Source of the DNA: Candidatus Latescibacterota bacterium
GTDB taxonomy: Bacteria; Latescibacterota; UBA2968; UBA8231
Length of the DNA: 64,000 nt
Direction of reading: 5' to 3'
NCBI GenBank assembly: GCA_965217585.1
Contig: OZ244561.1
Span: forward strand, 5,504,001-5,568,000
The translations under genes and the position numbers were made by a program. Below the pieces are notes generated by a model. The model was not told the DNA's origin and did no database searches. It saw only the letters and a program-made list of their open reading frames with translations. This document shows, piece by piece, positions 3,249-19,004 of this stretch; positions within the stretch are counted from its first letter, which is position 1, and each line of letters opens with the position of its first letter.

Positions 3249-5426
3249 ATGGTTGCGCGGCACATGCGACGGATGATCTCAAGCCTGAAGACTTGGGCCG
3301 TGAGGCTTAAAGGCTGGCGCGGTAAAAGGCAACGGCTGTGGCTGCGCCTGCTGGGCTATTACCTCGCCTTGGGGCTAGTGCCCGTGTTGCTGGTCGATCT
3401 CGTCGTGTTGAACGCGGCCCGCGATGCCATAGAAGAGGCCGTGCTGGACAGCCGCCGCGAAATGGCGCACCGCACAGCCGCGGAAATCGCCCGCATCTTT
3501 GCCGCTGTCGCCTCCGACTTGCAACTCCTCACACGAACTGTGGGAACCGAGCCGCAGGATGTGCGTGCTTTGCTCAAAAAAGCTGCCCTCGTATCTAGCG
3601 AGGTGGAGGTGCTCTACCTAGTGGACGCCCCCAACCAAATACAGGCCGCGAGCGCGTCGGTTGCGCTACCCGCTGCCTACGACTGGGACGCAACATGGGC
3701 GAAGGTGGCAGCCGATGGCCTATACGTTGCCCTGATCGAAGAATTCAAGGAAACGCCCAAGCTCTTTGTCGCGCTGCCAGTGGAACGGGATGGCCAGCCA
3801 CCTCAACAAGCCCTAATAGCTCGCCTCGACTTTCACCGAGTCTGGCAAAAGATAAATCTCGTCCGCATCGGCAAAACCGGCTACGCGACCTTGCTCCACG
3901 CCGACGATGGGCACTATCTGGCGCGGCCCATACGTCATTCCTTCTACACGTGGGTCCACCACCCGCACATAGAGGCCATGCGCGGGCCAGCGGGAACCCT
4001 CTTGTGGCGCGATGTGGGAGGCATGAAGTGGGTCACGGGTTTTGCTCCCGTGCGCGATGTGGGAGGCACCGTCACGGGCTTTGTTCCCGTGCGCGATTGG
4101 GACTGGATCGTCGCCATTGAACAGCGCGAAGACGAGGCGTATGCCCCGTACACAGTCGTGCTGTACTCCATCTATGCGATCATCGCGCTTTTTGCACTAG
4201 GGGCACTGATTTTGGGCGGGCTGACGCGCAGCTCGGTCGTCGCGCCTCTCGTCTCGCTTACGTATGCCGTGCGTCGCCGCCGGGACGGTTATCCCCTCAT
4301 AGGAACGCCCGTGACGCGCCGAGACGAGATCGGAGAACTAGCCGACGCTTTTGTCGAGATGGACCAAACGCTGGCCGAGCGCCAGCGGGACTTGGAAAGC
4401 ACCTTGAACTTGCAGCGCCATCTGATCGAGGACAATCCCCTCGCCATTGCCGTGCTCGACGCCGAGTACCGCATCGTACAGAGCAACAAAGCGTGGGCTA
4501 GCTTGCTGCTACCGGAACAGGCCGCCGAATTGAGCGCGACCCACGCCGGTGCCCAAACACACGCTTGGCTAGAGGCCCACCCGCATCTGCAAGTAGTGGA
4601 CAGCCTCGCAATCGAGGACGCCGAAGGCGTTATGCGCTATTGGAATCTGCGCAAGGCCGAACTGAGCGAGGGCCATCGCGGCAAGGTCTTGCTAGTCGTC
4701 GAGGACCGGACTCAGCAGCACCTACTCGAACTGCACTACATGCAGGCCGAAAAGCTATCGGCGCTCGGCGAGGTGGCCGCTGGCGTAGCGCACGAAATCA
4801 AAAACCCCCTCGCCATTGTGCAGAACACTTGCGACCTGCTGCCTCGATTGGGACCCGAAGAAGAAAAGGAGCGCGACGAGACTTTGCGCATGATGCGCGA
4901 GGCCATCCGCCGCATAGACGAGCGCGTCGGCAGCCTGCTCGACTTCGCCCGACCGGCCCAGCACCTAGTAGAGCAGCTAGACGCGGCCGAGGTGCTGGAG
5001 CAGTTGCTCGACTTGGAGACCAAACACGCCGAGCACTTAGGCATCTCGATTGAGCGACAGTTTGAGCCGGTGCCAGCCGTGCGCATAAACCGCGACATGC
5101 TCAAGGACATCTACCTCAACATCATCCGCAACGCCTTCCAAGCCATGCCCCAAGGCGGCCGCTTGCAGGTAAGCGCCCGCCCCGAGCAGGAGGGCGTCGC
5201 CATAAAAATCTGCGACACCGGTGCCGGCATTGATCCAACCCAGATCTCCCGCATATTTGAGCCGTTCTTTTCTACCAAAGCTCCGGGGGAGGGCACGGGC
5301 TTGGGGCTGGCCATCGCCCAGCGCCAGTTGCGGGAAATCGGCGGTCACATAGAGGTTACAAGCCGTGTCGGCAAAGGCACCTGCTTCGCGCTCTTACTGC
5401 CTTACAATAAAAAAGAAAAGGCATAG
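3249..5426 (+). CDS. Membrane sensor histidine kinase (Cache-HAMP-PAS-HisKA-HATPase, NtrB-like)
   Basis: Two TM segments, HAMP (RRDEIGELADAF), H-box AHEIKNPL, N/G1/F/G2 boxes; exact start uncertain. Confidence 0.93.
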   Translation: MVARHMRRMISSLKTWAVRLKGWRGKRQRLWLRLLGYYLALGLVPVLLVDLVVLNAARDAIEEAVLDSRREMAHRTAAEIARIFAAVASDLQLLTRTVGTEPQDVRALLKKAALVSSEVEVLYLVDAPNQIQAASASVALPAAYDWDATWAKVAADGLYVALIEEFKETPKLFVALPVERDGQPPQQALIARLDFHRVWQKINLVRIGKTGYATLLHADDGHYLARPIRHSFYTWVHHPHIEAMRGPAGTLLWRDVGGMKWVTGFAPVRDVGGTVTGFVPVRDWDWIVAIEQREDEAYAPYTVVLYSIYAIIALFALGALILGGLTRSSVVAPLVSLTYAVRRRRDGYPLIGTPVTRRDEIGELADAFVEMDQTLAERQRDLESTLNLQRHLIEDNPLAIAVLDAEYRIVQSNKAWASLLLPEQAAELSATHAGAQTHAWLEAHPHLQVVDSLAIEDAEGVMRYWNLRKAELSEGHRGKVLLVVEDRTQQHLLELHYMQAEKLSALGEVAAGVAHEIKNPLAIVQNTCDLLPRLGPEEEKERDETLRMMREAIRRIDERVGSLLDFARPAQHLVEQLDAAEVLEQLLDLETKHAEHLGISIERQFEPVPAVRINRDMLKDIYLNIIRNAFQAMPQGGRLQVSARPEQEGVAIKICDTGAGIDPTQISRIFEPFFSTKAPGEGTGLGLAIAQRQLREIGGHIEVTSRVGKGTCFALLLPYNKKEKA

Positions 5427-5428
5427 AC

Positions 5429-6835
5429 ATGGCCCGGCACGACGGCAAAATACTCATGATCGACGACGAGCAGGACCTGCTGAAGCTGTCGAGCAGCATC
5501 TTGCGGCGCGAAGGCTTTGCTGTGGAAACCCGCTCGGACGCGCGCGAGGCCCTCGCACTCCTGCGAGAAGAATCCTTCGACATCATCCTGCTCGACTTGC
5601 ACATGCCCGAGATGAGCGGCCTCGAATTTCTGCGGCAGCTCAATGTGCGCGAGCGGCCCGAAGAAGTGCTCATCTTAACGGCGTACGCGGATCTCCAAAG
5701 CGCGGTAGAGACCGTCAAGCTGGGCGCGTATGGGTATCTCGCCAAGCCCTTTAACGCCGAAGAAATCCTCAGCCACATCAGCAATATCCGCGAGCTGCAA
5801 AAGCTCCGGGCCGAGAACGAGCGTCTGCGCCAAGCACAGGGCGCGGGGTTGGGCATGGTCGGCGAGACTGAGCAGATGCGGCAAATCTATCGGCTGGTTC
5901 AAGACGTGGCCTCCACCCCCCTGCCGGTGCTAATCTGCGGCGAAAGCGGCACCGGCAAGGAGCTAGTAGCCGCGGCCATCCACCACGCCAGCGACCGCGC
6001 CGCCGGCCCCTTTGTGCGTTGCAACTGCGCGGCCTTGAACCCGGGCGTACTAGAGAGCGAATTGTTCGGGCACGTAAAAGGCTCTTTCACCGGAGCAGTA
6101 CGCGACCGCAAAGGGCGTTTTATGGAGGCCGATGGCGGTACCTTGTTCCTCGACGAAATCGGCGACATGGAGGTAGGGCTGCAAACCCGGCTTTTGCGCG
6201 TGTTGCAGGAAGGGGAGTTCGAGATGGTGGGATCGACCGAGACTCACAAGGTCGATGTGCGCGTCCTTTCCGCGACCCACCGCAATTTGACGCAGGCCGT
6301 AGCCGAGGGCCAGTTCCGCGAGGATTTGTTCTACCGACTCAACGCGGTCACCATCGAGGTGCCACCGCTGCGCCAGCGCAAGGGCGACATCCCTTTGTTT
6401 TGCCACTTTTTTATCGATCGCCTAAACGACCGCTTCGACAAACAGATACAAGGGGTCAGCAAGGAGGCCCTAGAGTATCTCGAAGCCTACAACTGGCCGG
6501 GCAATGTGCGCGAAATGGAGAACGCGATCATGCGCGCCATAGCCCTCGCCAAGGGACGAGAAATCGAGGTGGAGGATCTGCCGACGACTATCGTAGAGAA
6601 CGCTCCCCTGCGGGATGAGCCAGCAGCGGCAGAAGAGGAAGCGGTGGAGCAGCCCGACTCGCTCTTCCACGCGGCGCGCCAGCACTTTGAGGAGCAGTTT
6701 ATCCGAGACGCCCTAGAGAAAACGGGCGGCAACATCAGCCAAGCCGCTCAGCAGATCCAGTTGGGGCGACGCAACTTACAGCGCAAGATCAAGCAGTTCG
6801 ACATAGACGTGAGCCAATACAGCCGCCGGCCCTGA
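5429..6835 (+). CDS. Sigma-54-dependent response regulator (NtrC/AtoC family)
   Basis: Receiver domain, GESGTGKE, GSFTGA (GAFTGA variant), FLDEIGD, WPGNVRE, Fis-type HTH. Confidence 0.96.
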   Translation: MARHDGKILMIDDEQDLLKLSSSILRREGFAVETRSDAREALALLREESFDIILLDLHMPEMSGLEFLRQLNVRERPEEVLILTAYADLQSAVETVKLGAYGYLAKPFNAEEILSHISNIRELQKLRAENERLRQAQGAGLGMVGETEQMRQIYRLVQDVASTPLPVLICGESGTGKELVAAAIHHASDRAAGPFVRCNCAALNPGVLESELFGHVKGSFTGAVRDRKGRFMEADGGTLFLDEIGDMEVGLQTRLLRVLQEGEFEMVGSTETHKVDVRVLSATHRNLTQAVAEGQFREDLFYRLNAVTIEVPPLRQRKGDIPLFCHFFIDRLNDRFDKQIQGVSKEALEYLEAYNWPGNVREMENAIMRAIALAKGREIEVEDLPTTIVENAPLRDEPAAAEEEAVEQPDSLFHAARQHFEEQFIRDALEKTGGNISQAAQQIQLGRRNLQRKIKQFDIDVSQYSRRP

Positions 6836-6851
6836 ATCATTCCCACTCCTT

Positions 6852-6879
6852 CGTCATTCTCGCGCAAGCGGGAATGACG
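6852..6879. repeat. REP-like hairpin / probable terminator after the response regulator
   Basis: cgtcattctcgc-gcaa-gcgggaatgacg inverted repeat (ATTCYC-N8-GGGAAT type), followed by a half copy gcgcgggaatgacggattg. Confidence 0.65.
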
Positions 6880-6987
6880 GATTGCGCGGGAATGACGGAT
6901 TGATTCTCCATTTCCCCGTCAGTAACTAACGCAAGTTTTAAGAACGCTTCTTAGAAGTCTCCCCCGTTCCGCATCACCAACCCCTAC

Positions 6988-7024
6988 TGTCCGCTAGCGA
7001 ACACCTGCTGTCCGCTGACGCACA
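6988..7024 (+). promoter_or_regulatory. Tandem enhancer (UAS) sites TGT-N10-ACA for a sigma-54 activator
   Basis: tgtccgctagcgaaca (6988-7003) and tgtccgctgacgcaca (7009-7024), 21 bp apart, about 145 bp upstream of the -24 box; conserved at 17537-17573. Confidence 0.7.
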
Positions 7025-7168
7025 GTGATTAGATCGTCCAAATGGCCGATAAAAAGAATTTGAGAGACAAATAAAAAATAGGCTTACTTTCATAACGTAT
7101 TATTTAACAGCTATTTAGGAGTCAATAGTAAAAGAATCGGCGCAATTGGCGACCCCTAGCCCCCTCCT

Positions 7169-7185
7169 TTGGCACGATAGTTGCG
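7169..7185 (+). promoter_or_regulatory. Sigma-54 -24/-12 promoter
   Basis: TTGGCACGATAGTTGCG matches TGGCACG-N4-TTGC; about 50 bp upstream of the 7235 ATG. Confidence 0.9.
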
Positions 7186-7234
7186 ATAGTGCTTACCGAA
7201 GCAACAACCCGCACTCTTCCACAAGGAGGGCATC

Positions 7235-8047
7235 ATGCAACGCTTAGCCATTCGCATCCTATCTCTCGCGCTGATCGCCGTCTCCAGCACAGCGGCCGTC
7301 GAGACCAATTACCCGCAAGGGGGCTTTGATCCCCGTCTCGACAAGCTCCAGGACTTGCTTGCCCATATCCGCACCGTGGAGAAGATCAAGGTCAAAGCCG
7401 GTCCCAAGTTGTGGCAGGCCATTGCGACCATCCCCGTCGCGACGGGCCCCATCGCAACGGGCGTCCCCATCACCCCCGAGCAAGAAGCCGACCTGCGCGG
7501 CTGGCTCTACGACTTTCTCGTCGCCTTTTCGGTCTCTGGCAATGACAGCCTCGCCGCTCAGTTTTACCTGCGCGAGGGCGTCAACAACCCCACGGCCTTA
7601 AAACACATGAAAGAGACCCTCGAGAACTGGGACATCCCCAAAGGCGACACGCCCTTTGCTCTCTTCCAAGCTATGCACCGAGCCATACTCGACCACCAAG
7701 GCTATGAATACTGTTTTGGCAATGCCTTCTTTCGCCACAGCACGTTCAAGGTGTTCGAGATGCAGGGCCACTACGAGCGCTATCAGGCTTACCCGAGGGA
7801 CGTTGTCAAGGCCAGGTTCAAATTGCAGCAAGAGGTTGAATCGGCGCTGCGGGCTGGCGAGAAGCGGGTCTTCACCGACATCGCGTTCGTCACCGAAGAG
7901 CCTGCGGAGTTCGCCGGGTCGGAAGGGCCGATCTGCACGCCCTTCTTTTGTCGGCTGGTCTGGGATCCCGAGCGGACGATGTGGCGCTTTGTAGAGGTTT
8001 TCTACACCTCCAAACGGCCGAATCCTTTTCTATTCTCGGCCATATAA
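7235..8047 (+). CDS. Secreted hypothetical protein, paralogue 1 of an uncharacterised family (possible NTF2-like fold)
   Basis: RBS aaggagg; signal peptide; shared motifs ITPEQEADLRxWLYDFLVAFSVSGxDSLAAxFYLR and PFFxRLVWxP. Confidence 0.85.
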   Translation: MQRLAIRILSLALIAVSSTAAVETNYPQGGFDPRLDKLQDLLAHIRTVEKIKVKAGPKLWQAIATIPVATGPIATGVPITPEQEADLRGWLYDFLVAFSVSGNDSLAAQFYLREGVNNPTALKHMKETLENWDIPKGDTPFALFQAMHRAILDHQGYEYCFGNAFFRHSTFKVFEMQGHYERYQAYPRDVVKARFKLQQEVESALRAGEKRVFTDIAFVTEEPAEFAGSEGPICTPFFCRLVWDPERTMWRFVEVFYTSKRPNPFLFSAI

Positions 8048-8063
8048 GCACATTTTGACCCCC

Positions 8064-8091
8064 GTAGGGGCGACCGGCCGGTCGCCCCTAC
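8064..8091. repeat. Perfect 28-bp GTAG-type REP palindrome
   Basis: gtaggggcgaccgg|ccggtcgcccctac; identical copy at 18653-18680. Confidence 0.85.
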
Positions 8092-8196
8092 AACCATTCA
8101 CACGAATCGCCCCTACCAACCACGAATCGCCCCTACCAACCATCCACACGAATCGCACCCATCCATTCACACGAATCACCTCTACCATCCACACGA
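8092..8196. repeat. Degenerate tandem repeats of REP half-sites (cacgaatcgcccctaccaac...)
   Basis: 4-5 imperfect units of 20-27 bp between the REP and the paralogue 2 RBS. Confidence 0.7.
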
Positions 8197-8206
8197 GGAG
8201 GACACC

Positions 8207-9058
8207 ATGAGACCCGTAGCCATTTTCGCCCTAATCGCCGCTTGGTTCACCGTCGGCACGGCTGCTGCCGTCCCTAGAGGCTTTCCACCCGATACCGACG
8301 GACACCCGACGATCAAGATCGAGGCCGGCGACGAATTGCAACAGGCCGTCGAGGCCATCCCCGTCGAGGCGGACATTTCCATTACCCCCGATCAAGAAGC
8401 CGACCTGCGCGCTTGGCTCTACGATTTCTTAGTCGCCTTTTCCGTCTCGGGCAGCGACAGCCTCGCGGCCGAATTTTACCTGCGCGGAGGCGTCAACCCC
8501 GAAGGAATAGCGGATATAAAAAGGCAACTTGCAGCCATTAAACGGGGTGGCCCCTTAACCGCCCAGCAGCTACAGGCCATGGGGATACAGATGCCCGAGT
8601 TACCCGTTGGCGCGACGCCCTTTGACCTCTTCAAAGCCATGCACCGATTCGGCCTCAACCTAAAGAGGAACGAATCCCATCTAAACAGGCGCGATTACTT
8701 CTTCGGCAACGCCTCCTTTTTCGACAGCGCGTATAGAGTGTTCGAGCTGCAAGGCGACTATTATGAAAGCTATGGGGACTACGCCACGACCCACGGCCTG
8801 CTCCCCATGCGCTATACGGAGTGGTCGCCCGAGCTGAGAGGCGATATTGAGGAAGGGCTAAAGTTGGGCGGACAGTGGGTGGCGGCCGAGTTCATGTTCA
8901 TCGCCGAAGAACCCGAGGAGTTCGCCAGCTTTGCGGAGCCGGTGCGCCACCCATTTTTCGTGCGACTCGTCTGGATCCCAGGGCAAGATATATGGCGTCT
9001 TGTAGAAGCCTTCGCGCCTAATGACGCGCCGGTTCTGTTTCTATTTGATGCCACGTGA
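8207..9058 (+). CDS. Secreted hypothetical protein, paralogue 2
   Basis: RBS gaggagg; signal peptide; same family motifs as 7235..8047. Confidence 0.85.
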   Translation: MRPVAIFALIAAWFTVGTAAAVPRGFPPDTDGHPTIKIEAGDELQQAVEAIPVEADISITPDQEADLRAWLYDFLVAFSVSGSDSLAAEFYLRGGVNPEGIADIKRQLAAIKRGGPLTAQQLQAMGIQMPELPVGATPFDLFKAMHRFGLNLKRNESHLNRRDYFFGNASFFDSAYRVFELQGDYYESYGDYATTHGLLPMRYTEWSPELRGDIEEGLKLGGQWVAAEFMFIAEEPEEFASFAEPVRHPFFVRLVWIPGQDIWRLVEAFAPNDAPVLFLFDAT

Positions 9059-9080
9059 TCCAGCCCTTATAAGCAACACA

Positions 9081-9123
9081 GCAGAGGCGGGCAGTTCATA
9101 GATGGACTGCCCGCGCTTCTGTG
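9081..9123 (+). terminator. GC-rich hairpin after paralogue 2
   Basis: gcagaggcgggcagt...actgcccgcgcttctgtg; a homologous hairpin lies at 19030-19070. Confidence 0.6.
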
Positions 9124-9302
9124 ACCGCCCGCCCCGAAATCTCCCCTGCCTGTCAATCTTCACCATCCACTGAGTCGCATCCCAAACATGGCGCAGACAT
9201 TTCTATCTGCGCTTCCCCGCCCCCGGCTGCCTCGCTTAGATGCACAGGTACTTAGGTATGGGATGCTGAGCGGAGCGAAGCATCTCCTGACCAAGAAGCC
9301 CA

Positions 9303-9362
9303 TGCGATGTTTGGACGCACTAAAAGCGATGATTCGACGCACTTGTGCGATATATTGTCGCA
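9303..9362 (+). promoter_or_regulatory. Three phased 17-bp enhancer sites (WGCGA-N7-WCGCA)
   Basis: tgcgatgtttggacgca (9303), agcgatgattcgacgca (9325), tgcgatatattgtcgca (9346); spacing 22/21 bp, about 145 bp upstream of the -24 box. Confidence 0.7.
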
Positions 9363-9442
9363 CTTTTAGGATACTAAGGGAACTGTACGAAGGGCCAAAG
9401 AGACGGAGGAGAAATTTAGTCCACTTTTTATAAAGCATTATT

Positions 9443-9505: not shown

Positions 9506-9522
9506 TTGGTACGATAGTTGCA
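9506..9522 (+). promoter_or_regulatory. Sigma-54 -24/-12 promoter
   Basis: TTGGTACGATAGTTGCA; the leader is homologous to those at 7169 and 17749. Confidence 0.85.
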
Positions 9523-9572: not shown

Positions 9573-10469
9573 ATGCAACCCGTAGCCATTCGCACCCTGT
9601 ACCTCGCCCTGATCACCGCTTGGTTCGCCGTCTCCAGCACAGCTACTGCCGAGCCTAAAAGCCAGTACGGCGGCTTTTCCCCCGATGCCGACGGTCACCA
9701 AGCCTATCTCGACTACATCAACGGCTTGGAGATGATCCAAGTCGAAGCCGGAGCCGAGTTGCAGCAGGCCGTCGAGGCCATCCCCGTCGAGCCGGGTGTC
9801 CCCATCACCCCCGAGCAAGAAGCCGACCTGCGCACTTGGCTCTACGACTTTCTCGTCGCCTTTTCCGTCTCTGGCAGCGACAGCCTCGCCGCTACTTTCT
9901 ACTTGCGCGAAGGTGTCGATGACCCGGACCAGATACAGCGGATGAAAAAGGACTTGGAAAGCGGTCCCAGTCTCAAAGATAAAGCCGCACTAAAAGCACT
10001 AAAGGCGGTGGGGATAAGTATCCCCATCCCCGAGCCGGTCCCCGATGCGGGCGATACGCCCCTTGCCATTTTAAAAACCCAGCACAGGCAAATCCTCTAC
10101 ATGAAGGGACGCGATTACTTCTTCAGCAACATCTCCTTTTTCGACAGCAAGTACAGCGTGTTCGAATTACAAGGAGAGTATGAGAGCTATGTAGACTACA
10201 TCAAGACCCACGGCCTGCTTCCCATGGGCTATATGGGTTCGTTTCCCATGGGAAACGAGATTGAGGAAGCTCTACAGGCCGGCGAAAAGTGGGTGGCGGC
10301 CCAATTCATGTTCATCTTTGCAGAGCCTGAAGAGGCCGCCGACTTTGAAAAGGGGCCGATGCGCTGCCCGTTTTTCGTGCGACTCGTCTGGAGCCCAGAG
10401 AAGGCTACGTGGTGCCTTGCAGAAATCGTCATGCCGAATAACGCGCCGGTTCAGTTTTCATTCTTGTAG
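9573..10469 (+). CDS. Secreted hypothetical protein, paralogue 3
   Basis: RBS aaggagg; signal peptide (ATA-E); family motifs; first gene of the exporter operon. Confidence 0.85.
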   Translation: MQPVAIRTLYLALITAWFAVSSTATAEPKSQYGGFSPDADGHQAYLDYINGLEMIQVEAGAELQQAVEAIPVEPGVPITPEQEADLRTWLYDFLVAFSVSGSDSLAATFYLREGVDDPDQIQRMKKDLESGPSLKDKAALKALKAVGISIPIPEPVPDAGDTPLAILKTQHRQILYMKGRDYFFSNISFFDSKYSVFELQGEYESYVDYIKTHGLLPMGYMGSFPMGNEIEEALQAGEKWVAAQFMFIFAEPEEAADFEKGPMRCPFFVRLVWSPEKATWCLAEIVMPNNAPVQFSFL

Positions 10470-10544: not shown

Positions 10545-12116
10545 ATGATAGGCATTGTATTCAAAAAAGAGATGCTCAGCCATCTGCTCAGCCAGCGCTT
10601 CGCCGCTTGCACCGTACTCGCCGTCGTGCTGATCATCGCCAATGGCGTCCTCACCAGCCAGACCTATGTCCACAAAAAGGCCAGCTATCTCACACAGCGG
10701 GCCGTTGAGGAAACCAAACTGCACGAAATCACCTATTATTCGGTCCTAGGCTGGGACTGGTTGATGTCGCCTAACGCGGGTTTCAAGCCAAAGGCGGCTC
10801 CACGCGCTCTACGGGCCCCGCGCCCCCTAGCGGTGTTCGCTCAAGGTGCCGAACGACAGGCAGGACAGGCGGTCAAGGTGATGCTCTTCAACGTGCCCTA
10901 CCAAGCCGAGGAGGTCTCGCCCTTCCAGTCGAGCAACCCCTACCTCGCCATCTTTGCCTTCTTCGACATGGTGTACATCTTCCAACTCGTGCTCGGCTTG
11001 CTGGCCGTCCTCATCGCCAGCGAGGCCATCTCCGGTGAGAAGGAAGACGGCACCCTGCGGCTGATGCTAACGACCAACGTCAGCCGTGCCCAAGTCCTCG
11101 TCGGCAAGATCCTCGCTGGCCTGACGACGCTGGCTATTCCGGCGGCCTTGGGCTTTATCCTGCTGACGATCTTGCTATTGGGCACTGAGAACATCGAAGT
11201 CGGGGTCGGCGAGTGGGTGCGGGTGGGTCTGCTGTTCGCGCTATCGCTGCTGTATCTGCTGGTGTTTTACCTGATTGGGCTGGTGATCTCGTGTGCGACC
11301 CACCGCTCGGCAACCAGCTTGATTTACGCGCTGTTTGCGTGGGCGTTGCTGGCGATTGTGCTGCCCAACAGCATCTCAGCCTTGCTCAACGAGCAGGCCA
11401 ACATGGGTGAAAAACATGCCCAAGCCCACCACAAGGCCGCACAAGTGTGGAAGGAGTTCGATCAGGAGGTCACGGACCTCGCTCGGGCGCACGGCCAGAC
11501 CAAGTACTTTCCCACAGACATGGTCGAGCATGTCCATACGGAGGGACGCGGAACTGTAATCTATCGTGCCGGAACTGAAACCTACTCCAAAAGAGACGGG
11601 CAGATGCCCAAGATATATTTATCTAACGTCGCCGATTCACCCTCGCTTGCGAAATTCCAAGACATCGTCCGCAGCGGCGAGCGGTTGCGATTGCAGTACG
11701 CCCAGCGCGCCTGGAACGAAAAGGCCCCCCTCATTGAAGGCTTCCCCCGCCGCATCGAACGATGGAATGACCAACTCCAACGCCTCTTTCCCGCTGGTGC
11801 CTTCGCTCAAGCCGCTAGTGCCTTCGCCGGCACCAGCCGACGCGAATACTACGACTTTATCGACCAAGTGCGCGCCTATCGCGGGCAGATCATCACCTTT
11901 CTCGAAGACCGCGACGCATTTGGTTCCCGCGAGTGGTTCAACGACGACGAAGGCTGGCGCGCTGACCTGCGCGACCTGCCGAGGTTTCACGAGCACGCCT
12001 GGACGACCGTCGAGAGCTTGAGCTACGCTTTGCCGGCTCTAACGGCTCTGCTGCTCTATGCGGCCGTGCTCTTTGTCCTCGCTAATCGGCTCTTCGCGCG
12101 CTACGATGCCATGTGA
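10545..12116 (+). CDS. ABC-2 type transporter permease with large extracytoplasmic domains
   Basis: KKEM N-terminus, AISGEKEDGTLRLML...GK motif, about 6 TM segments. Confidence 0.9.
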   Translation: MIGIVFKKEMLSHLLSQRFAACTVLAVVLIIANGVLTSQTYVHKKASYLTQRAVEETKLHEITYYSVLGWDWLMSPNAGFKPKAAPRALRAPRPLAVFAQGAERQAGQAVKVMLFNVPYQAEEVSPFQSSNPYLAIFAFFDMVYIFQLVLGLLAVLIASEAISGEKEDGTLRLMLTTNVSRAQVLVGKILAGLTTLAIPAALGFILLTILLLGTENIEVGVGEWVRVGLLFALSLLYLLVFYLIGLVISCATHRSATSLIYALFAWALLAIVLPNSISALLNEQANMGEKHAQAHHKAAQVWKEFDQEVTDLARAHGQTKYFPTDMVEHVHTEGRGTVIYRAGTETYSKRDGQMPKIYLSNVADSPSLAKFQDIVRSGERLRLQYAQRAWNEKAPLIEGFPRRIERWNDQLQRLFPAGAFAQAASAFAGTSRREYYDFIDQVRAYRGQIITFLEDRDAFGSREWFNDDEGWRADLRDLPRFHEHAWTTVESLSYALPALTALLLYAAVLFVLANRLFARYDAM

Positions 12117-12147: not shown

Positions 12148-13602
12148 ATGCTAGCAGCTATCGTAAAACGCGAACTGATTGACCACCTCATCAGCCTGCG
12201 TTTTGGCTTAGCCCTCGTGTTGACGGTGGGGTTAATGGTGCTCAACGCGCTCGGCTTTGTCGGAGGCTCGTACGAGTTCAGACGCGACCACTATCTCGAA
12301 CAGGTCCAAGCCGAGCAAGAGGTGCGGCGCAGCAACGCTCAACGGGGCCTGTGGAAGCTGATCCTCCACGGGGGACAGAACTATATCTATAAAAAACCAA
12401 GTGCCCTCATGTTCTGCGCCGCTGGTGCCAACGATGCCCTACCCGAACGCTTCAGGACAGCGGGAGGAGAAACCACCTACAATGGCACCAAATTCTACAG
12501 TCCCTTTGTACTCGTCTATTGGGACATCATAGACATCTGGGCACCGAAGGCCAGCCAACTGCTGGAGACCCAAGCCACCGACTGGGTCTTTATCATCGGC
12601 GTCCTGCTCAGCCTCATGGCCTTGTTGTTCACCTTTGACGCCTTCATCGGCGAAAAAGAGCGCGGCACCCTCAAACTGGTCATGGCCCAAAGCCTGCCGC
12701 GCCACACCCTCCTACTGGGCAAATTCCTCGGCGCAATGCTGGCCCTCGCGATCGTGTTGAGCATCGCCATCATCGTCAATTTACTCATCGTCCTCGCGTT
12801 GTCGAAGGTGAACTTGGGCCTCGTCGAGGCCGGGCGCTTGGTTGGCATAGTCGGCCTATCGCTACTCTACCTCGCCTGCTTTGTCGGCTTGGGGCTGTGG
12901 GTGTCGATACGGAGCAGCACCACGCGCTCTAGCCTGGTGGGAGTGCTATTGCTGTGGACCTGCGGGGCGTTGCTCTGGCCAGCCACTGGCGGCGCACTAG
13001 CCGCCCGTGTGTTCGTCAGCGAATTCGAGGAGGAGCTAACACTAGGGTTGGGCTTCGCAAACTTCTATAACACGCCAGCCGACCAAAAACTCATTCATCT
13101 TAAGAACCGTTTGCGGAATCGCGATCTGAGAAAACCCGAGAAAGTGCGCCAGTTGGCCGACGCCCAACGCGCCGTGCGCCAGCTCCACCAAGACCGAGAA
13201 GACCGCTTTTTGGCTCACAGCCTCGGCGAGGTCGAAAAAGCCCGCCACATCGTGCGCCTGTCGCCGACGGGCTGTTTTCAGTACGGCATGGAGGCCCTCG
13301 CCGGCACCGGACTAGCGCGCCATCGCAGCTTCGTCGAGCAAACGCGCACCTACGTCCAGCAATTCGAGCAGACCATGCTAAACCTCGACCGCGACGATCC
13401 CAAAAGCATGCACATCCACCTCGTCGCCCAGGGGCTGTCGAAGCAGAAAATCGATCCCGACACCTTACCCGTTTTCACCGAGAACCTGTCGGCGACAACC
13501 TTGCTGCGTCACGCCGTCGTCGATGTGATCGGCCTATTTTTCTTCGCCGTTCTCACGTACATGCTGGCCTACCGGTCGTGGCTGCGTGCCAGCATTATCT
13601 AA
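12148..13602 (+). CDS. ABC-2 type transporter permease (second)
   Basis: KRELID, DAFIGEKERGTLKL...LLGKFLG, LSPT motif, TM pattern. Confidence 0.9.
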   Translation: MLAAIVKRELIDHLISLRFGLALVLTVGLMVLNALGFVGGSYEFRRDHYLEQVQAEQEVRRSNAQRGLWKLILHGGQNYIYKKPSALMFCAAGANDALPERFRTAGGETTYNGTKFYSPFVLVYWDIIDIWAPKASQLLETQATDWVFIIGVLLSLMALLFTFDAFIGEKERGTLKLVMAQSLPRHTLLLGKFLGAMLALAIVLSIAIIVNLLIVLALSKVNLGLVEAGRLVGIVGLSLLYLACFVGLGLWVSIRSSTTRSSLVGVLLLWTCGALLWPATGGALAARVFVSEFEEELTLGLGFANFYNTPADQKLIHLKNRLRNRDLRKPEKVRQLADAQRAVRQLHQDREDRFLAHSLGEVEKARHIVRLSPTGCFQYGMEALAGTGLARHRSFVEQTRTYVQQFEQTMLNLDRDDPKSMHIHLVAQGLSKQKIDPDTLPVFTENLSATTLLRHAVVDVIGLFFFAVLTYMLAYRSWLRASII

Positions 13603-13614
13603 AGGAGTACAGCA

Positions 13615-15126
13615 ATGTCTTTGATCTTCTACATCTTCGGACTGCTGCTGTGCGCCCTCGCGGCCCAAGCCGAAAACTTGACCAAGGAACAGCAGCGCAT
13701 CCTGCTCGACCTCCAAGAGGCCCACTTAATTCTAGAGCAGGCCAAAGCGCGCGAGGCCGAAGTCGAAATCGAGCACGAGCAGATGATCGGCCTCAAGGAG
13801 CGCGGCGTGGTCACCGGCCAAGAGCTACGCATGGCCCGCGAGCGCTACGAGCGCGCCCGCCAAGAGCGGCAACGGGCCGACTTAAACCTACAGCGCGCCT
13901 TCCTCAACTCGCTGGCCGACGCCACCCATCTGACGGTCGTCAACGGCCAAAAGTACGGCGTCGAAGGCGACAAGGTGCGCGTGCGGCTCACCTTGCGCAA
14001 CGACTCGGATCTCCACTTGGCGCAAATGGTCGATCAGGCCCGCCGGCGCTACGAGATCAACGGCCTCGACCAAGACGCCGCGTCGCTGTTGCAGGTGAAC
14101 AACATCTTCGTCACCATCCTCGCCGACCACGTCATGGTCGGCCGGCCCTACCAAGTCCACATCCCCGTGCTAGCTCTCGGCGAGGAAGTCGAAGTCGAGG
14201 TCGGCTTGCAGCGTCCCGAGGTCGAGGACCTCACGGTGCAACTCCAATACCTCAACCGCACGGACGAGCACGTCATTCACCTAGAAAAGGCTTCGGCCCG
14301 CGACGTAGTGCGCGTGTACGCCACCCAGTTCTCTCAAGAAGGTCCTTTGGGCAACTCGGTGGCGTACGAGCTACAGCTAGAGCGGCTGGCCGAAGACGAA
14401 AAGATTTTCCAGCTCATGGCGCACGGACTGCCAGACGACTTCCGCTGGGAGTTCGAGAGCGGGGGCCGCAACCTGTCGCGGCTGCGCTTTTCCCGCGACC
14501 ACTCCAGCGACTCGCTCATACTCAACGTGTACGTCCCCGAACAGGCCGCGAGCTTTGCGGTGGATCAGCCGATCCTATTCTCGGTGCTGGCCTACGAGCC
14601 AAAGACCGTGGACACAGAGGTTTTGGCCGCGGCCGACCCAGAGCGCTTGCAAGCCATGGGCATTGGCTACGAACAACTGCAACTGGTGCCCACGGGCCGC
14701 GCCGAATTGGAACTGACCACCCTCAATCTCGACCTCTCCGTGAATGGCGAAGGCGAGTCGCAGTCCGTTTGGCATCTACGCAACCTCGGCACGGTTGAAT
14801 TGCTCGACATCCGCCTGCAAGCCCTCTCACCACCCGGCTGGGAGGTCGTCTTTGAGCCGCAGGAAATCGCCCTGCTCCCGCCGCGCGAGGAAATAGAAGC
14901 CGTGCTGACCGTGCGGCCCATCAACAGCGCCGAAATCGGACGCTACGAAGTCAAGACCAGCGCGAGCACCCAGCACAAGGGGCAGTGGGTCGAGTCGGTC
15001 GAGCGCACCGTCAACATAAACATCAAGAGCGATGGGTCGTTTTGGGGCATAACGGGGTTGGTGATCTTGCTGGTGAGCATCGTGCTGGGCATCGCCGTCT
15101 TCACCGTGCAATGGAGCAAGCGATGA
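13615..15126 (+). CDS. Exported protein: N-terminal coiled-coil hairpin, Ig-like/NEW3-like domains, C-terminal membrane anchor
   Basis: Signal peptide AQA-E; helical 25-100; LRNLGT...PPGWEVVFEPQEIALLPP...GRYEV NEW3-like repeat; C-terminal TM ending WSKR. Confidence 0.7.
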   Translation: MSLIFYIFGLLLCALAAQAENLTKEQQRILLDLQEAHLILEQAKAREAEVEIEHEQMIGLKERGVVTGQELRMARERYERARQERQRADLNLQRAFLNSLADATHLTVVNGQKYGVEGDKVRVRLTLRNDSDLHLAQMVDQARRRYEINGLDQDAASLLQVNNIFVTILADHVMVGRPYQVHIPVLALGEEVEVEVGLQRPEVEDLTVQLQYLNRTDEHVIHLEKASARDVVRVYATQFSQEGPLGNSVAYELQLERLAEDEKIFQLMAHGLPDDFRWEFESGGRNLSRLRFSRDHSSDSLILNVYVPEQAASFAVDQPILFSVLAYEPKTVDTEVLAAADPERLQAMGIGYEQLQLVPTGRAELELTTLNLDLSVNGEGESQSVWHLRNLGTVELLDIRLQALSPPGWEVVFEPQEIALLPPREEIEAVLTVRPINSAEIGRYEVKTSASTQHKGQWVESVERTVNINIKSDGSFWGITGLVILLVSIVLGIAVFTVQWSKR

Positions 15127-16514
15127 CGGCTTATCGATCAGCCTTGGCAGCCCTCTGCTGCTTGACGAGCATCGTCCACGCAGAGGAGTGGGATCTAACG
15201 ACTTGTCAGCGCGAAGCGGGCCACCACAGCCCAGTACTCGGAGCGGCCCGCGCCCGCTGGAACCAGATGGCGGCACGCACCCGCCTCGATTATGCCGAGC
15301 AACTCCCGACCATCGGCCTGAACGCGGATTACGAGCGCAGCGAATTCGCCGACGCGAACGCACCAGAGGCCGACCAACGCGAGCTTTTCTTGCAAGCCCA
15401 GCAAGAGATCGTGCGCTACGGAGCCACCACCCCATCGCGCTTTGCCGCCAAGCACCGGGAGCAGGCAGAAAAGGCGCGCTACCGCGAGGCCATCATCGCC
15501 GTGGATAGCAAGGTGCGCCAAGCGTATTACCGCCTGCTGCTAACGCGCGACGAGATCGCCAGCCGCGACGAGTTGCTCGCCTACTTCCGCGCTAAAATGG
15601 ATCGGGTGCAAACGCGCCTCGACGCTGGCTTGGCACGGCCCGTAGAGCTGCACGAGGCCGAGCTAGAGGTATTGGAGGAGCAGACGCGGATCAACAACCT
15701 CCAGCGCGAGTTGCGCGCCCTGCATCTGAAGCTCTTCACCGAGATCGGCCTCGTGGGCAAACGCTCGCTCCGCGACATCGAGGTCGTCGGCCCGCCCTAC
15801 GAGCAACTACAGCTACTCGACCCCAGCGAAGAGGACCTGTCCGTCCTCATCGAGGAAGCGCGCACCAACCGGCCCTACCTCGCCGAACTCGTCTGGCAAA
15901 TAGGCCAACAGCAGCACCAAGCGCGCAGTATTTTCTGGCAGTGGCTGCCCCACGTCGGCCTGCAACTGACCAAGGATTTCCAAGACACCGACCTCGGCTT
16001 GAACTGGAGCGGCAACGGCCAAACTTGGAAGCTGGTAGGATCCGGTCGTCGCTCGCTCGCCAGTGAGGGCTTGGACCCCGCACTGGACATGGGCGAGAAC
16101 TGGCGCGTGATGGCCAACGTGTCGCTGCCCCTGTTCCAAGGCGGTCGGCGGTTGGCGCAAGGGACCGAGGAGCGGGCGCGGCTCCACGAACTGCACCAAG
16201 ACCGCGACCAGACCCGCAACTTGATTGAACTCGAAGTGGTCGAGGCGTTTTACGCTTTGAAAAGTCGGCGGGAAAACACGCAGATTCTGCGCCGACGCGC
16301 CGATGTAGCCCGCCAGCGTTTGGACACAGTCGAAGAGCTGTTTGAAAACGCCATGGGCTACCTCAACTTCGACGACATCCGCCGCCAGCGGGTCGCCGTC
16401 AACTTCGCCGAGCAGAGCTATTTTGCCGAGCGCTTGGCTTACATCCTCGCGGCTGAAGAGCTGCGGCGGGTACTGGGCCGCGCCCTCAACAGCGAGTTTT
16501 ACAAAACCCCTTGA
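15123..16514 (+). CDS. TolC-family outer membrane efflux protein
   Basis: Start overlaps upstream stop (ATGA); signal peptide; LPTIGLNA, VRQAYYRL, VSLPLFQGG, EVVEAFY OEP motifs. Confidence 0.88.
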   Translation: MTAYRSALAALCCLTSIVHAEEWDLTTCQREAGHHSPVLGAARARWNQMAARTRLDYAEQLPTIGLNADYERSEFADANAPEADQRELFLQAQQEIVRYGATTPSRFAAKHREQAEKARYREAIIAVDSKVRQAYYRLLLTRDEIASRDELLAYFRAKMDRVQTRLDAGLARPVELHEAELEVLEEQTRINNLQRELRALHLKLFTEIGLVGKRSLRDIEVVGPPYEQLQLLDPSEEDLSVLIEEARTNRPYLAELVWQIGQQQHQARSIFWQWLPHVGLQLTKDFQDTDLGLNWSGNGQTWKLVGSGRRSLASEGLDPALDMGENWRVMANVSLPLFQGGRRLAQGTEERARLHELHQDRDQTRNLIELEVVEAFYALKSRRENTQILRRRADVARQRLDTVEELFENAMGYLNFDDIRRQRVAVNFAEQSYFAERLAYILAAEELRRVLGRALNSEFYKTP

Positions 16515-16528
16515 GAAAGGATCGCATC

Positions 16529-17251
16529 ATGTTGGAGATCATCGGACTTTCCAAGCACTACGGTGACGTCAAAGCAGTCACCGACCTCAACCTGACCATC
16601 GAAGGCGGCGAGATCTTCACCATGCTCGGGGCCAACGGTGCCGGCAAGACGACCACCTTGATGGTCGCATTGGGCTTTACCGATCCCACCCAAGGGACGG
16701 TCAAGCTGTGCGGCATCGACATCACCGAGCAGCCCTTAGAGGCCAAAAAGCACGTGGCCTATGTCTCGGAAAACGTCATGCTCTACGGCAACTTTAGCGC
16801 GCGGCAGAACTTGGACTTCTTTACCCGCTTGAGCGGCCAGCCACCCCAAGACTCCGAGCACTACGACGAGATCATGGCACGCGTCGGCCTGCAACAGGAG
16901 GCATTCGACCGGCGGGTCAAGGAGTTTTCCAAGGGGATGCGCCAGAAGCTGGGGATTGCCATTGCCATTGCCAAGGACGCCCGCATCGTGTTGCTCGACG
17001 AGCCTACGTCGGGCCTCGATCCCAAGTCCGGGGCCGAGTTTTTGGAGCTGTTGGATGAGCTACGCAACGAGGGCAAGGCCATCTGGATGACCACCCACGA
17101 CGTATTCCGCGCCCGCGTGATCGCCGACCGGCTCGGCATCATGGTCGAGGGCCACCTCGTCAAGACGCTCACCCGCGACGAATTCCAGGAAGCCGACTTG
17201 GAACGCCTCTACGTCGAATACGTAGAACGGCCCGTCCTGCCAGCAGCCTAG
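16529..17251 (+). CDS. ABC transporter ATP-binding protein
   Basis: GANGAGKT, FSKGMRQK, LLDEPTSGLD, H-loop. Confidence 0.96.
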   Translation: MLEIIGLSKHYGDVKAVTDLNLTIEGGEIFTMLGANGAGKTTTLMVALGFTDPTQGTVKLCGIDITEQPLEAKKHVAYVSENVMLYGNFSARQNLDFFTRLSGQPPQDSEHYDEIMARVGLQQEAFDRRVKEFSKGMRQKLGIAIAIAKDARIVLLDEPTSGLDPKSGAEFLELLDELRNEGKAIWMTTHDVFRARVIADRLGIMVEGHLVKTLTRDEFQEADLERLYVEYVERPVLPAA

Positions 17252-17269
17252 GATGGGAGAGGGCGCGTG

Positions 17270-17403
17270 AAGGGATACCAAGGCCAATTTGGGCTGTGGT
17301 CCGATACCGGCACGCCCAAGGCCGACTTCCACCGCGCCACCCAGTTCGGCATCCTCACCTTCCCGGACGCCATCGTCGGCCGCTGAAGCACTGCGGCGAC
17401 TGG
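17270..17403 (+). repeat. Displaced copy of the 3' end of the CBM9-like gene (3083-3216)
   Basis: Translates KGYQGQFGLWSDTGTPKADFHRATQFGILTFPDAIVGR* versus the gene's KGYQGQFGLWSDTGTPQADFHRATRFGILTFSDAVVGR*. Confidence 0.92.
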
Positions 17404-17536
17404 ACGCTTCTAAAAGGGTAGCCCACTTCCTCGTCAAAATCCCGCTACCCTTCAACCCGCACCAGCCGCCGACTCCCAAACGTGCTGCAGATATTCCATC
17501 TGCGATTCCGCCCATTCCGCATCAACTAACCCCTAC

Positions 17537-17573
17537 TGTCCGCTAGCGAACACCTGCTGTCCGCTGGCGCACA
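17537..17573 (+). promoter_or_regulatory. Tandem TGT-N10-ACA enhancer sites (copy of 6988-7024)
   Basis: tgtccgctagcgaaca and tgtccgctggcgcaca, 21 bp apart. Confidence 0.7.
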
Positions 17574-17748
17574 GTGATTCGATAATCAAAACGGCAGATA
17601 CCGCCAGATCTAGAGTATTAAGGGATGACAGAAGGGATTTGAGAGGTGGACGAAAAATTATCTTATTTTTTATAAAGCATTGTTTAACAGAAATTTAGAT
17701 GTATAAATTCAAAGAAATCGACGCGATTGGCGACCGCTGGCCCCTTCA

Positions 17749-17765
17749 TTGGCACGATAGTTGCG
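17749..17765 (+). promoter_or_regulatory. Sigma-54 -24/-12 promoter
   Basis: TTGGCACGATAGTTGCG, identical to 7169-7185. Confidence 0.9.
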
Positions 17766-17815
17766 ATAGTCCTCACTGAAGCAGCAACCCACACTCTTCC
17801 ATCAAGGAGGGCATC

Positions 17816-18640
17816 ATGCAACCCTTAGCCATTCGCATCCTATATGTCGCCCTGATCGCCGTTTATGGCGGCGTCTCCAGCGCAGCGGCAGTCGAGACCA
17901 AGTACCCGAACGGCGGCTTTGCGCCCCGTCTCGACAAGCTCCAGGACTTGCTTGCCCATATCCGCACCGTGGAGAAGATCAAGGTCAAAGCCGGGCCCAA
18001 GTTGTGGCAGGCCATTGCGACCATCCCCGTCGCGACGGGCCCCATCGCGACGGGCGTCCCCATCACCCCCGAGCAAGAAGCCGACCTGCGCGACTGGCTC
18101 TACGACTTTCTCGTCGCCTTTTCGGTCTCTGGCAATGACAGCCTCGCCGCCCAGTTTTACCTGCGCGAGGGCGTCAACAACCCCACGGCCTTAAAACACA
18201 TGAAAGAGACCCTAGAGAACTGGGGGATTCCCAAAGGCGACACGCCCTTTGCTCTCTTCCAAGCCATGCACCGAACCGTACTCGACGACCAAGGCTATGC
18301 ATACCGCTTTGGCAACGCCTTCTTTCGCCACAGCACGTTCAAGGTGTTCGAAATGCAAGGCCGCTACGAGAGCTATCGGTCGTACCCAAGGGACGTTGTC
18401 AAGGCCAGGTTCAAATTGCAGCAAGAGGTTGAAGCGGCACTGCGAGCCGGCGAGAAGCGGGTCTTCACCGACATCGCGTTTGTCACCGAAGAGCCGGCGG
18501 AGTCCGCCGGATCGGAAGGCCCGATCTGCACGCCCTTCTTTTGTCGGCTGGTCTGGGACCCAGAGCGGGCGATGTGGCGCTTTGTAGAGGTTTTCTACAC
18601 CTCCAAATTGCCGCATCCTTTCCTGTTTTCGGCCATATAA
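17816..18640 (+). CDS. Secreted hypothetical protein, paralogue 4 (close allele of paralogue 1)
   Basis: Roughly 90% identical to 7235..8047 by visual alignment; intact ORF, RBS and promoter. Confidence 0.87.
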   Translation: MQPLAIRILYVALIAVYGGVSSAAAVETKYPNGGFAPRLDKLQDLLAHIRTVEKIKVKAGPKLWQAIATIPVATGPIATGVPITPEQEADLRDWLYDFLVAFSVSGNDSLAAQFYLREGVNNPTALKHMKETLENWGIPKGDTPFALFQAMHRTVLDDQGYAYRFGNAFFRHSTFKVFEMQGRYESYRSYPRDVVKARFKLQQEVEAALRAGEKRVFTDIAFVTEEPAESAGSEGPICTPFFCRLVWDPERAMWRFVEVFYTSKLPHPFLFSAI

Positions 18641-18652
18641 TCGTATTTTGAT

Positions 18653-18680
18653 GTAGGGGCGACCGGCCGGTCGCCCCTAC
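18653..18680. repeat. GTAG-type REP palindrome (second copy)
   Basis: gtaggggcgaccggccggtcgcccctac, identical to 8064-8091. Confidence 0.85.
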
Positions 18681-19004
18681 TCCGAAGGAATCGTGGAAAT
18701 GAAAAACGAGATAGAAAAGATAAGAAAGCAAATTACACCCGCAGCGGCCCAGCAGCTAGAGGCAATGGGGATAAGGGCAAGGGGCCCCGAGATTGAGGAA
18801 GGACTAAAGTTGGGCTTTGAGGGAGTGGCGGCCGAGTTCATGTTCATCGCCGAAGAGCCTGAAGAGTTCGCCGGCTTTGAGGGGCCAAGACGCCACCCAT
18901 TTTTCGTGCGACTCGTCTGGAACCCAAGGCAGGACATGTGGCGTCTTGTAGAAGCCTTCGCGCCTAATGACGCGCCGGTTCTGTTTCTATTTAATTCCAC
19001 GTGA
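18681..19004 (+). pseudogene. Truncated, internally deleted allele of paralogue 2 (paralogue 5)
   Basis: Begins mid-gene (matches about 8498-8590), then jumps to match 8845-9058 (IEEGLKLG...FAPNDAPVLFLF); no signal peptide. Confidence 0.85.

Follow-up and report, generated by a model that had tools for sequence, protein, structure and literature searches.

An island of genes all lying on the + strand (positions 3249-19169 of a 64,000-nt stretch of Candidatus Latescibacterota DNA, the window of this report) hosts multiple copies of a gene for proteins with Sec-type N-termini, here denominated F. The source genome is a single contig of 7.32 Mb, and coordinates are those of the window. Judged by sequence, F is a new family, restricted to one genus within the phylum. 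F subfamilies hold fixed positions beside particular ABC-2 permease genes of an export machine, and some F genes carry their own sigma-54 promoters. The interpretation preferred here, if only tentatively, is that F proteins reach the periplasm via Sec and there partner the permease ectodomains in ligand binding or specificity. What a first-pass annotation of the same DNA had observed is confirmed, and its interpretation, a set of variable secreted proteins coupled to their own exporter, is partly supported.

Four complete F genes, fam1 to fam4, and a truncated remnant are found in the window (Table 1). The four align over the full length, fam2, fam3 and fam4 being 50, 52 and 91% identical, respectively, to fam1. 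Both conserved blocks previously attributed to five paralogues are present in all four complete copies, but the fifth has the C-terminal block alone. This fragment, formerly placed at 18681, is real, but its open reading frame (ORF) runs from 18693 to 19004; it corresponds to the C-terminal third, lacks a signal peptide, shows 89% DNA identity to 8842-9061, and is recognizable as an internally deleted copy of a fam2-like gene. In a repeat search fam1 and fam4 were 96% identical at the DNA level over 300 nt, and the 91% identity of their products suggests a recent duplication. Promoters, hairpins and coding parts of the fam4-remnant pair are 82-96% identical to those of the fam1-fam2 pair, of which the former appears to be a decayed duplicate. 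The short ATPase gene relic at 19108-19169 is likewise readable as the scar of an earlier rearrangement of the array.

In an alignment of 106 members, column entropy is low in the conserved core (0.6-0.8 bits at residues 81-120) and rises to 2.0-2.1 bits in two variable segments (121-140 and 201-240), and the length of an insert at 128-163 varies between 2 and 54 residues. The high variability earlier noted at the N-termini and between the blocks is real, but is uneven, as the closeness of fam4 to fam1 illustrates. About 20 polar residues are kept in at least 93% of the members, among which Y110, R112, H171, Y182, S192, Q200, Y206, R270 and E284.

As previously supposed, F fits no recognized family. 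None was found for any copy in Pfam or NCBIfam, seven members tested against Pfam at E <= 10 hit 0 families, and the best match of a profile of the five window copies to PDB sequences had an E value of 0.89; neither Pfam nor PDB sequence searches matched F to a characterized enzyme family. A collection of 5.8 billion proteins contains 407 F relatives; among the matches listed (120), identity is 58-100%, no domain is assigned and the only name is 'hypothetical protein'. A profile search of 1.84 billion cluster representatives gave 60 matches at E <= 0.001, many of them fragmentary. One of these (P0138, 602 aa) resembles a fusion or a chimeric gene call, and two giant repeat proteins (P0163 and P0179), matching solely through a low-complexity 'GSDSL' stretch, were judged spurious. 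None of 2579 candidates for longer or fused F forms scored, which the search tool rates as weak evidence. Genomic F loci recovered amount to 52, of which 48 are from metagenome-assembled genomes labelled Latescibacterota or Latescibacteria and 4 from ones labelled Gemmatimonadota or Gemmatimonadetes. When 168 genomes of the phylum were scanned in six frames, F was detected in 24 of the 30 other genomes of the genus of the window; the 45 genomes from other genera of its family and the 92 from other families had none. Positive genomes have from 1 to at least 15 F matches, the scoring being capped at 14 candidates. The genome of the window has ten, including five in the window, two standalone copies plus a fragment, and a divergent 348-aa copy. 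No description of the F family or of the exporter machine was found in the literature searched, supplementary files lying outside the search.

The AlphaFold model of F, obtained from a 27-sequence alignment (mean pLDDT 84.7, pTM 0.81), includes a low-confidence N-terminal helix corresponding to the signal peptide, a small helix/strand region (39-74), helices at 80-96, 103-112 and 118-130, the variable helical insert, a helix at 163-177 and a six-stranded antiparallel sheet (186-288). The predicted fold is an alpha+beta cone, in which the N-terminal helices pack into the curved sheet. Foldseek retrieved nothing from the PDB at E <= 0.001. The model was compared by VIA-align with 48,161 representative chains and, in a second look, with the top 1000 Foldseek entries. 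The best match was at Z 5.9 (rmsd 4.0, 126 residues aligned) in the wide search, at Z 6.2 (rmsd 3.7, 119 residues) in the second look. The top 50 rows of both lists are nearly all NTF2-like, with Z 4-6.2 and 105-126 residues aligned to domains of 120-140 residues. They include the C-terminal domain of Pgp2/Csd6, SO_0125, SnoaL/ketosteroid-isomerase-like proteins, dioxygenase beta subunits, VirB8/TraM, the CaMKII hub and the C-terminal domain of OCP. The NTF2/SnoaL-like fold guessed in the first-pass annotation fits both the model and these lists, albeit with modest scores (Z 5-6.2); since Z stays below 8, the assignment is moderately supported, short of proven. The nearest named Atlas clusters (DUF3828, DUF4864 and DUF4878, scores 0.82-0.83) are leads only, and no profile of the NTF2-like Pfam clan (SnoaL, DUF4440, DUF3828 type) matched F.

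A start of the type helix, G-x-D, helix is typical of the NTF2-like superfamily, and F resembles it in this motif as well as in the predicted cone. Some structural matches, such as the VirB8/TraM domains, are periplasmic and work, as F would, beside membrane machines. F differs in having about 50 additional residues at the N-terminus and the 2-54-residue insert, and reaches 270-300 aa against about 130 aa of a plain domain. MlaC, the periplasmic lipid shuttle of the Mla ABC system, is a comparable member of the superfamily, but is absent from the listed matches. Inspected by eye and by hydropathy, F N-termini feature a basic residue, about 16 hydrophobic residues and an Ala-rich, Ala-x-Ala-like end, all without Cys. 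They thus resemble Sec signal peptides cleaved by signal peptidase I, in line with the periplasmic or secreted location proposed earlier, and would leave a mature protein of about 250 residues. With Cys missing, the possibility that F proteins are lipoproteins was dropped.

The proteins of the window were mapped onto the 52 F loci; overlapping loci were kept separate, and some genes are therefore counted twice. A recurrent order emerges in the loci of relatives, consisting of kinase, activator, a variable series of the type [F/P1/P2]n (P1 and P2 being the two permeases), and single NEW3, TolC and ATPase genes. The kinase orthologue marks the 5' end of arrays, and activator orthologues, 91-94% identical, adjoin them. 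The window represents the minimal form of the array, and long runs are found in other species: L017 and L024, which overlap on a single chromosome, jointly cover about 40 kb and contain at least nine F genes and about six permease pairs. A permease gene lies within 3 kb of 65 of the 88 F genes having at least 3 kb of flanking DNA, and all 17 genomes of the genus with an orthologue-level NEW3 gene also have F. An exception is the fam1/fam4 type, which is mostly standalone and occurs in four genomes without the machine.

Positions beside permeases follow the F phylogeny (FastTree, 112 rows, local support). All members of a 14-row clade (support 100) are directly downstream of a P1 gene; all members of a 9-row clade (support 100) are directly upstream of a P2 gene; seven of the nine members of another clade (support 100) are directly downstream of a P2 gene. 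Genes similar to fam3 precede P1. The label 'P1|F' requires 4 changes on the tree against a shuffled mean of 9.7, the label 'F|P2' 3 changes against 8.8; in both instances 0 of 500 shuffles were as low. Both machine copies in the genome of the window have an F gene directly 5' of P1. The second machine (L013, G000:C1:6080000-6098000, - strand) is complete, encoding the divergent 348-aa F, P1, P2, NEW3, TolC and ATPase. Its NEW3 protein is 97% identical to that of the window, and its upstream neighbors are different, namely a TPR/GH2_N sugar-binding protein, an OmpR-type regulator and a kinase; no sigma-54 site was seen 5' of its F gene.

Pfam confirmed the domains assigned in the first-pass annotation to the genes neighboring F, namely kinase, activator, two ABC-2 permeases, NEW3 protein, OEP/TolC and ABC ATPase. 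By hydropathy each permease has six predicted transmembrane segments and periplasmic loops of about 100 and 220 residues, in P1 at about 40-138 and 274-494. Variation among permease paralogues peaks in loop patches (P1 61-80 and 321-360; P2 101-120 and 281-340; 1.6-2.0 bits), and is only 0.1-0.5 bits in transmembrane segments and N-terminus. Such a pattern fits the association of many permease pairs with one ATPase, the pairs differing on the side where F is presumed to be. No HlyD/membrane-fusion protein (MFP) adaptor domain was found by Pfam in any ORF of 3249-19004. The NEW3 protein features a signal peptide, a helical hairpin (24-62/68-103, about 40+40 residues), tandem beta-sandwich domains and a C-terminal transmembrane anchor. 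The hairpin, of about 80 residues, is modelled at a pLDDT of about 90; Foldseek gave generic tandem beta-sandwich/Ig-like matches alone, and no relative was found among PDB sequences. Because of the shape of the hairpin and the absence of an MFP, the NEW3 protein may replace the missing membrane-fusion adaptor between pump and TolC. The TolC ORF is open from 14985, and its likely start is Met 15111 or 15123, just 5' of a signal-like segment.

An ATPase, permeases with periplasmic parts and a TolC-family factor encoded in one operon define tripartite ABC efflux systems, of which the machine appears to be an undescribed variant. Known pumps of this class, in which the exit duct belongs to the TolC family, include MacAB-TolC and YbhGFSR, the latter an ABC-2 pair with an MFP. 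As in these pumps, the genes for a single ATPase, a TolC-family protein and two permeases with extensive periplasmic portions lie together, and the long helical hairpin of the NEW3 protein is of the type by which adaptors extend to TolC. In contrast to these pumps, the hairpin protein is not an HlyD/MFP adaptor, being built of tandem beta-sandwich/NEW3 domains and a C-terminal anchor, and relatives of the window have many alternative permease pairs per ATPase. We know of no extra NTF2-like subunits in either pump. NosY belongs to an ABC-2 complex that acts with periplasmic partner proteins, and for this reason its relationship to the permeases counts in favor of F as permease partner. It is the only solved chain matching the permease profile (E 3.6e-08, residues 148-280). 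The likeness to the NosDFY(L) system of nitrous-oxide reductase maturation (PDB 7o0y and related) is limited to the transmembrane core of NosY, which has neither large loops nor DUF3526, and no NosD-like or NosL-like genes or copper-enzyme context are found here.

A six-frame genome search identified NEW3-type proteins in 30 of the 49 genera and 78 of the 168 genomes of the phylum; this range is underestimated by a word-based search, which retrieved 15 clusters, all at 74% identity or more. F is confined to one genus, which suggests that the machine is old and F a genus-specific addition. The coupling of F to an exporter of its own, as first proposed, stands for the strong ABC-2/NEW3/TolC link within the genus, but the exporter, shared so widely, is not F's own.

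Control by sigma-54, and the presence of own promoters before three copies (7170, 9507 and 17750), had been correctly anticipated. No site precedes fam2 (8207). The predicted sites are of the type TGGCAC-N5-TTGC, with GG and GC 10 bp apart, and are accompanied by upstream repeats and by the activator gene at 5429-6835. Matches to a loose sigma-54 pattern number 8 in the window against 5.1 expected, which is no enrichment; the extended site in its exact form, TGG[C/T]ACGATAGTTGC, occurs only four times in the 7.32-Mb genome, each time about 50 nt 5' of an F start codon. In relatives the motif precedes 29 of 106 F genes against a background of 0.03 per region, 9 of 13 NEW3 genes and 2 of 44 P1 genes, and was found upstream of none of 36 P2, 10 TolC and 10 ATPase genes. 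Two types of upstream element were also identified. UAS1 (tandem TGTCCGnTnnCGnACA, 21-bp spacing) has six hits in the whole genome, paired before fam1, fam4 and a standalone copy. All 20 hits in relatives are on the + strand, and 19 of these lie 225-280 nt upstream of fam1/fam4-like or fam2-like genes. UAS2, a palindrome (GTGCGA-N6-8-TCGCAC), was counted 17 times in 13 loci of relatives, 5' of array-internal genes (F, NEW3 or P1), against about 0.3 expected by chance according to our own estimate, and is a candidate activator site of the fam3/permease promoter.

F genes also share a leader of about 47 nt (...GCTTACCGAAGCAACAACCCGCACTCTTCC..AAGGAGGGCATCATG; 7188-7234 in fam1), conserved in relatives as well as in copies whose promoters differ. 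Its role could lie in translation or stability; no Rfam family matched it, nor anything else at positions 1-24000 of the window. Contigs from an RNA library labelled 'sponge metagenome' (run X22) match with 0-3 differences fam1 (7225-7690), fam4 and the remnant only, and are a weak hint that this region is transcribed. Libraries X20 and X21 yielded contigs about 90% identical over much of the locus, which come from relatives. As the data are contigs, levels, strands and transcript ends are unreadable, DNA carry-over is possible, and gaps in X22 are uninformative.

The preferred interpretation combines these elements as follows. F would be a Sec-exported periplasmic protein of about 250 residues, an NTF2-like cone with a variable helical insert, recruited within the genus as accessory subunit of an older, phylum-wide envelope machine. 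In the latter, heterodimeric ABC-2 permeases having large periplasmic loops would share one ATPase and be complemented by an inner-membrane-anchored hairpin/Ig-like NEW3 protein and a TolC channel. Each F subfamily would be the periplasmic ligand-binding or specificity partner of one permease or permease pair, capturing a substrate, probably small and hydrophobic, or presenting it to the permease ectodomain, so that it is expelled via TolC at the expense of ATP. The dCache kinase would sense a periplasmic signal, and sigma-54 activators would in turn switch on transcription. If this is true, a soluble NTF2-like periplasmic partner would be a new type of accessory subunit in ABC-2/TolC efflux, to be added to a non-MFP adaptor made of hairpin and Ig-like domains and to a modular diversification of exporters, with many permease pairs on one motor. 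The phylum is uncultured, and almost nothing is known of its envelope biology. F provides a clean genus-specific marker with strong inducible promoters, tractable for heterologous expression, structure determination and ligand screening; were the interpretation wrong, F would still be a well-delimited orphan family with a confident model.

Several observations weigh against a role of F as permease partner. Conservation of gene order between closely related genomes can be due to inheritance alone, and need not imply that the products interact physically. The structural matches of F are modest (Z at most 6.2), and Z values below 8 may, according to the tool, mean a common arrangement alone. The nearly invariant polar residues fit an enzyme as well as a binder. 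No F gene accompanies the NEW3, TolC and ATPase genes and the permease genes (frequently at least three) of five distant loci, two of which include a kinase/activator pair, and the presence of the machine without F in other genera and families implies that F is dispensable for its basic function. Of the 24 rows of the fam1/fam4-like clade, 15 are standalone, with no family or machine gene adjoining, and 8 are at array edges or beside other F genes. Moreover, four genomes, 93-95% complete, have one F gene, no NEW3-type gene at E <= 1e-5 and no activator orthologue (best identity 45-46%), which indicates that at least the fam1/fam4-like subfamily acts on its own. The prediction of a complex between full-length P1 and mature fam3 (27-298) scored 0.00, gives no verdict and counts neither way.

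A bolder version of the partner hypothesis, which we regard as rather improbable, depicts a cassette-type exporter. One ATPase, a hairpin/Ig-like adaptor and TolC would be common to a library of permease pairs, each with its NTF2-like 'reader', and the genus would shuffle [F + permease] modules to change the compounds expelled or sensed. The near-identical sequences in the sponge-labelled RNA library suggest that such an exporter might serve chemical exchange with an animal host.

F proteins could alternatively be periplasmic NTF2-like enzymes of the cyclase, isomerase, hydrolase or dehydratase type, modifying a metabolite before or after export, with subfamilies differing in substrate. We consider this unlikely. 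The fold class includes many small-molecule enzymes, and SnoaL-like, ActVI-ORFA, Aln2, NsrQ and ketosteroid-isomerase-like proteins are all among the structural matches; the nearly invariant set of polar residues in the 106 members would suit a catalytic role, as would a standalone subfamily functioning without the machine. Nonetheless, F has no sequence match to any enzyme family, no biosynthetic genes are found beside the arrays, and variation is concentrated in surface loops and in the insert, sparing the core. A fixed pairing with individual permease genes is moreover unexpected for a soluble enzyme.

Slightly less plausible is that F proteins are protective, immunity-like, or sensory, and bind in the periplasm a toxic or signalling compound, exported by the machine or encountered in the habitat, either sequestering it or reporting it to membrane partners such as an anti-sigma factor or the kinase. 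Immunity proteins with an NTF2 fold exist (Imm-NTF2, PF15655; cited in PMC8853679). The structural matches of F include RsgI9 (7sjy), an anti-sigma sensor having an NTF2 domain, and the locus opens with a dCache kinase. In addition, 6 of 20 standalone loci examined have the F gene followed by genes for an ECF (extracytoplasmic function) sigma factor and a single-pass anti-sigma-like protein; these six have lost the sigma-54 promoter and kept the conserved leader. The context, which fits F as a periplasmic binder handing a signal to a membrane partner and thus counts for the preferred interpretation too, is found in a subset of one subfamily only. F matched neither Imm-NTF2 nor any other Pfam family at E <= 10, and no toxin gene was seen beside any F copy, Pfam scans of the four loci of the own genome and of several loci of relatives revealing no toxin-like neighbor.

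Other standalone loci have been noted. One F gene of the same genome (L012, G000:C1:6057126-6057932, - strand) has a sigma-70-like TTGATT-17-TACTAT in place of the sigma-54 promoter, retains the 47-nt leader, and adjoins a GntR regulator and an operon encoding an ABC ATPase and an ABC-2 permease; a short, stop-containing F fragment lies beside it. Another (L011, G000:C1:2748000-2766000) has both UAS1 and the sigma-54 promoter. Two thioredoxin/redoxin-domain proteins and a 1042-aa Reg_prop sigma-54 activator are encoded upstream, two giant TPR/DUF7133/GSDH proteins downstream. Redoxin paralogues flank standalone F genes also in L058, L063 and L064.

The least likely of the alternatives weighed is that F proteins are cargo, delivered by Sec to the periplasm and then expelled or displayed through ABC-2/NEW3/TolC, each by its own permease pair, to target host or competitors. 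Signal peptides, strong inducible promoters of their own, and the multi-copy, genus-specific and fast-varying pattern frequent in secreted interaction proteins are all compatible with this role, as is the restriction of near-identical RNA-library contigs to fam1, fam4 and the remnant. However, a folded 30-kDa alpha/beta domain is too big for the TolC channel, and known TolC cargo is unfolded in passage and has no Sec signals. F has no recognizable secretion motif or repeat, standalone F genes exist in genomes without the machine, and conservation of the latter across the phylum without F implies that it has another substrate. Nothing in the analysis demonstrates the effector or immunity functions, or the secretion beyond the periplasm, suggested in the first-pass annotation. 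F as substrate-binding protein of an ABC importer (no Pfam family of this type, a single alpha+beta cone against two lobes, TolC context) and F as type I secretion substrate (Sec-type N-terminus, no repeats) were both rejected.

Table 1. Features of the F island, in window coordinates, with the basis of assignment of the kinase, activator and exporter genes
Feature	Position	Strand	Basis
Sensor histidine kinase, two transmembrane segments, periplasmic dCache, HAMP, PAS, HisKA, HATPase_c	3249..5426	+	Pfam, hydropathy
NtrC-type sigma-54 activator: receiver, AAA+ Sigma54_activat, HTH_8	5429..6835	+	Pfam
UAS1 tandem element, two copies of CTGTCCGCTnnCGnACA, 21-bp spacing, ~165-185 bp before the -24 site	6987..7024	+	
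Predicted sigma-54 -24/-12 promoter of fam1, TGGCACGATAGTTGC	7170..7184	+	
F paralogue fam1, 270 aa, mostly standalone/array-edge subfamily	7235..8047	+	
GC-rich 28-nt hairpin GTAGGGGCGACCGGCCGGTCGCCCCTAC 3' of fam1 (second copy 3' of fam4, ~18655)	8064..8091	+	
F paralogue fam2, 283 aa, without own sigma-54 site	8207..9058	+	
UAS2 inverted repeat GTGCGA-N7-TCGCAC, 5' of fam3	9345..9363	+	
Predicted sigma-54 promoter of the fam3-permease unit, TGGTAC variant, TGGTACGATAGTTGC	9507..9521	+	
F paralogue fam3, 298 aa, opens the exporter operon; signal peptide, predicted NTF2-like fold, helical insert	9573..10469	+	
ABC-2 permease P1, 523 aa, ABC2_membrane_2/DUF3526	10545..12116	+	Pfam, hydropathy
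ABC-2 permease P2, 484 aa, ABC2_membrane_2/DUF3526, architecture as P1	12148..13602	+	Pfam, hydropathy
NEW3 (NPCBM_assoc) protein, 503 aa, candidate TolC adaptor	13615..15126	+	Pfam, hydropathy, AlphaFold
TolC-family outer-membrane factor (OEP)	15111..16514	+	Pfam, NCBIfam, translation
ABC ATPase, DrrA/ABC-2 type, sole ATPase of the locus	16511..17251	+	Pfam, NCBIfam
Second UAS1 tandem element, 5' of fam4	17536..17573	+	
Predicted sigma-54 promoter of fam4, TGGCACGATAGTTGC	17750..17764	+	
F paralogue fam4, 274 aa, 91% identical to fam1	17816..18640	+	
Truncated fam2-like remnant, 103 aa	18693..19004	+	
Relic of the ATPase gene 3' end, 62 nt, 92% identical to 17160-17221	19108..19169	+	

Minor sequence elements are interspersed with these genes. 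The hairpin 3' of fam1 is followed by four to five tandem copies of a 20-23-nt unit (8082-8191), which includes the 3' arm of the hairpin; hairpin and units together may form an element similar to REPs (repetitive extragenic palindromes). An 18-nt direct repeat (GCGGGAATGACGGATTGC, 1.9 copies) is located at 6868-6902, just 3' of the activator gene. In all runs contigs pile up there to a very high depth, of about 2200 in the RNA libraries, and the sequence is probably a multi-copy repeat of community genomes.

Directly 3' of the island, genes on the - strand (19853-23102) encode a restriction endonuclease of BglII type (236 aa), a 327-aa N6/N4 DNA methylase and a 560-aa HerA-like helicase (DUF87/HAS-barrel), and probably make up a small defence island. 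The GC content falls to 0.53 at 19-21 kb of the window. A 117-aa ORF (19347-19700, + strand) encodes repeated 'DQKIDSRF' heptad-like units and a hydrophobic C-terminus, and is preceded at 19282 by a sigma-54-like site with one mismatch (TGGCCCAAGTTTTGC).

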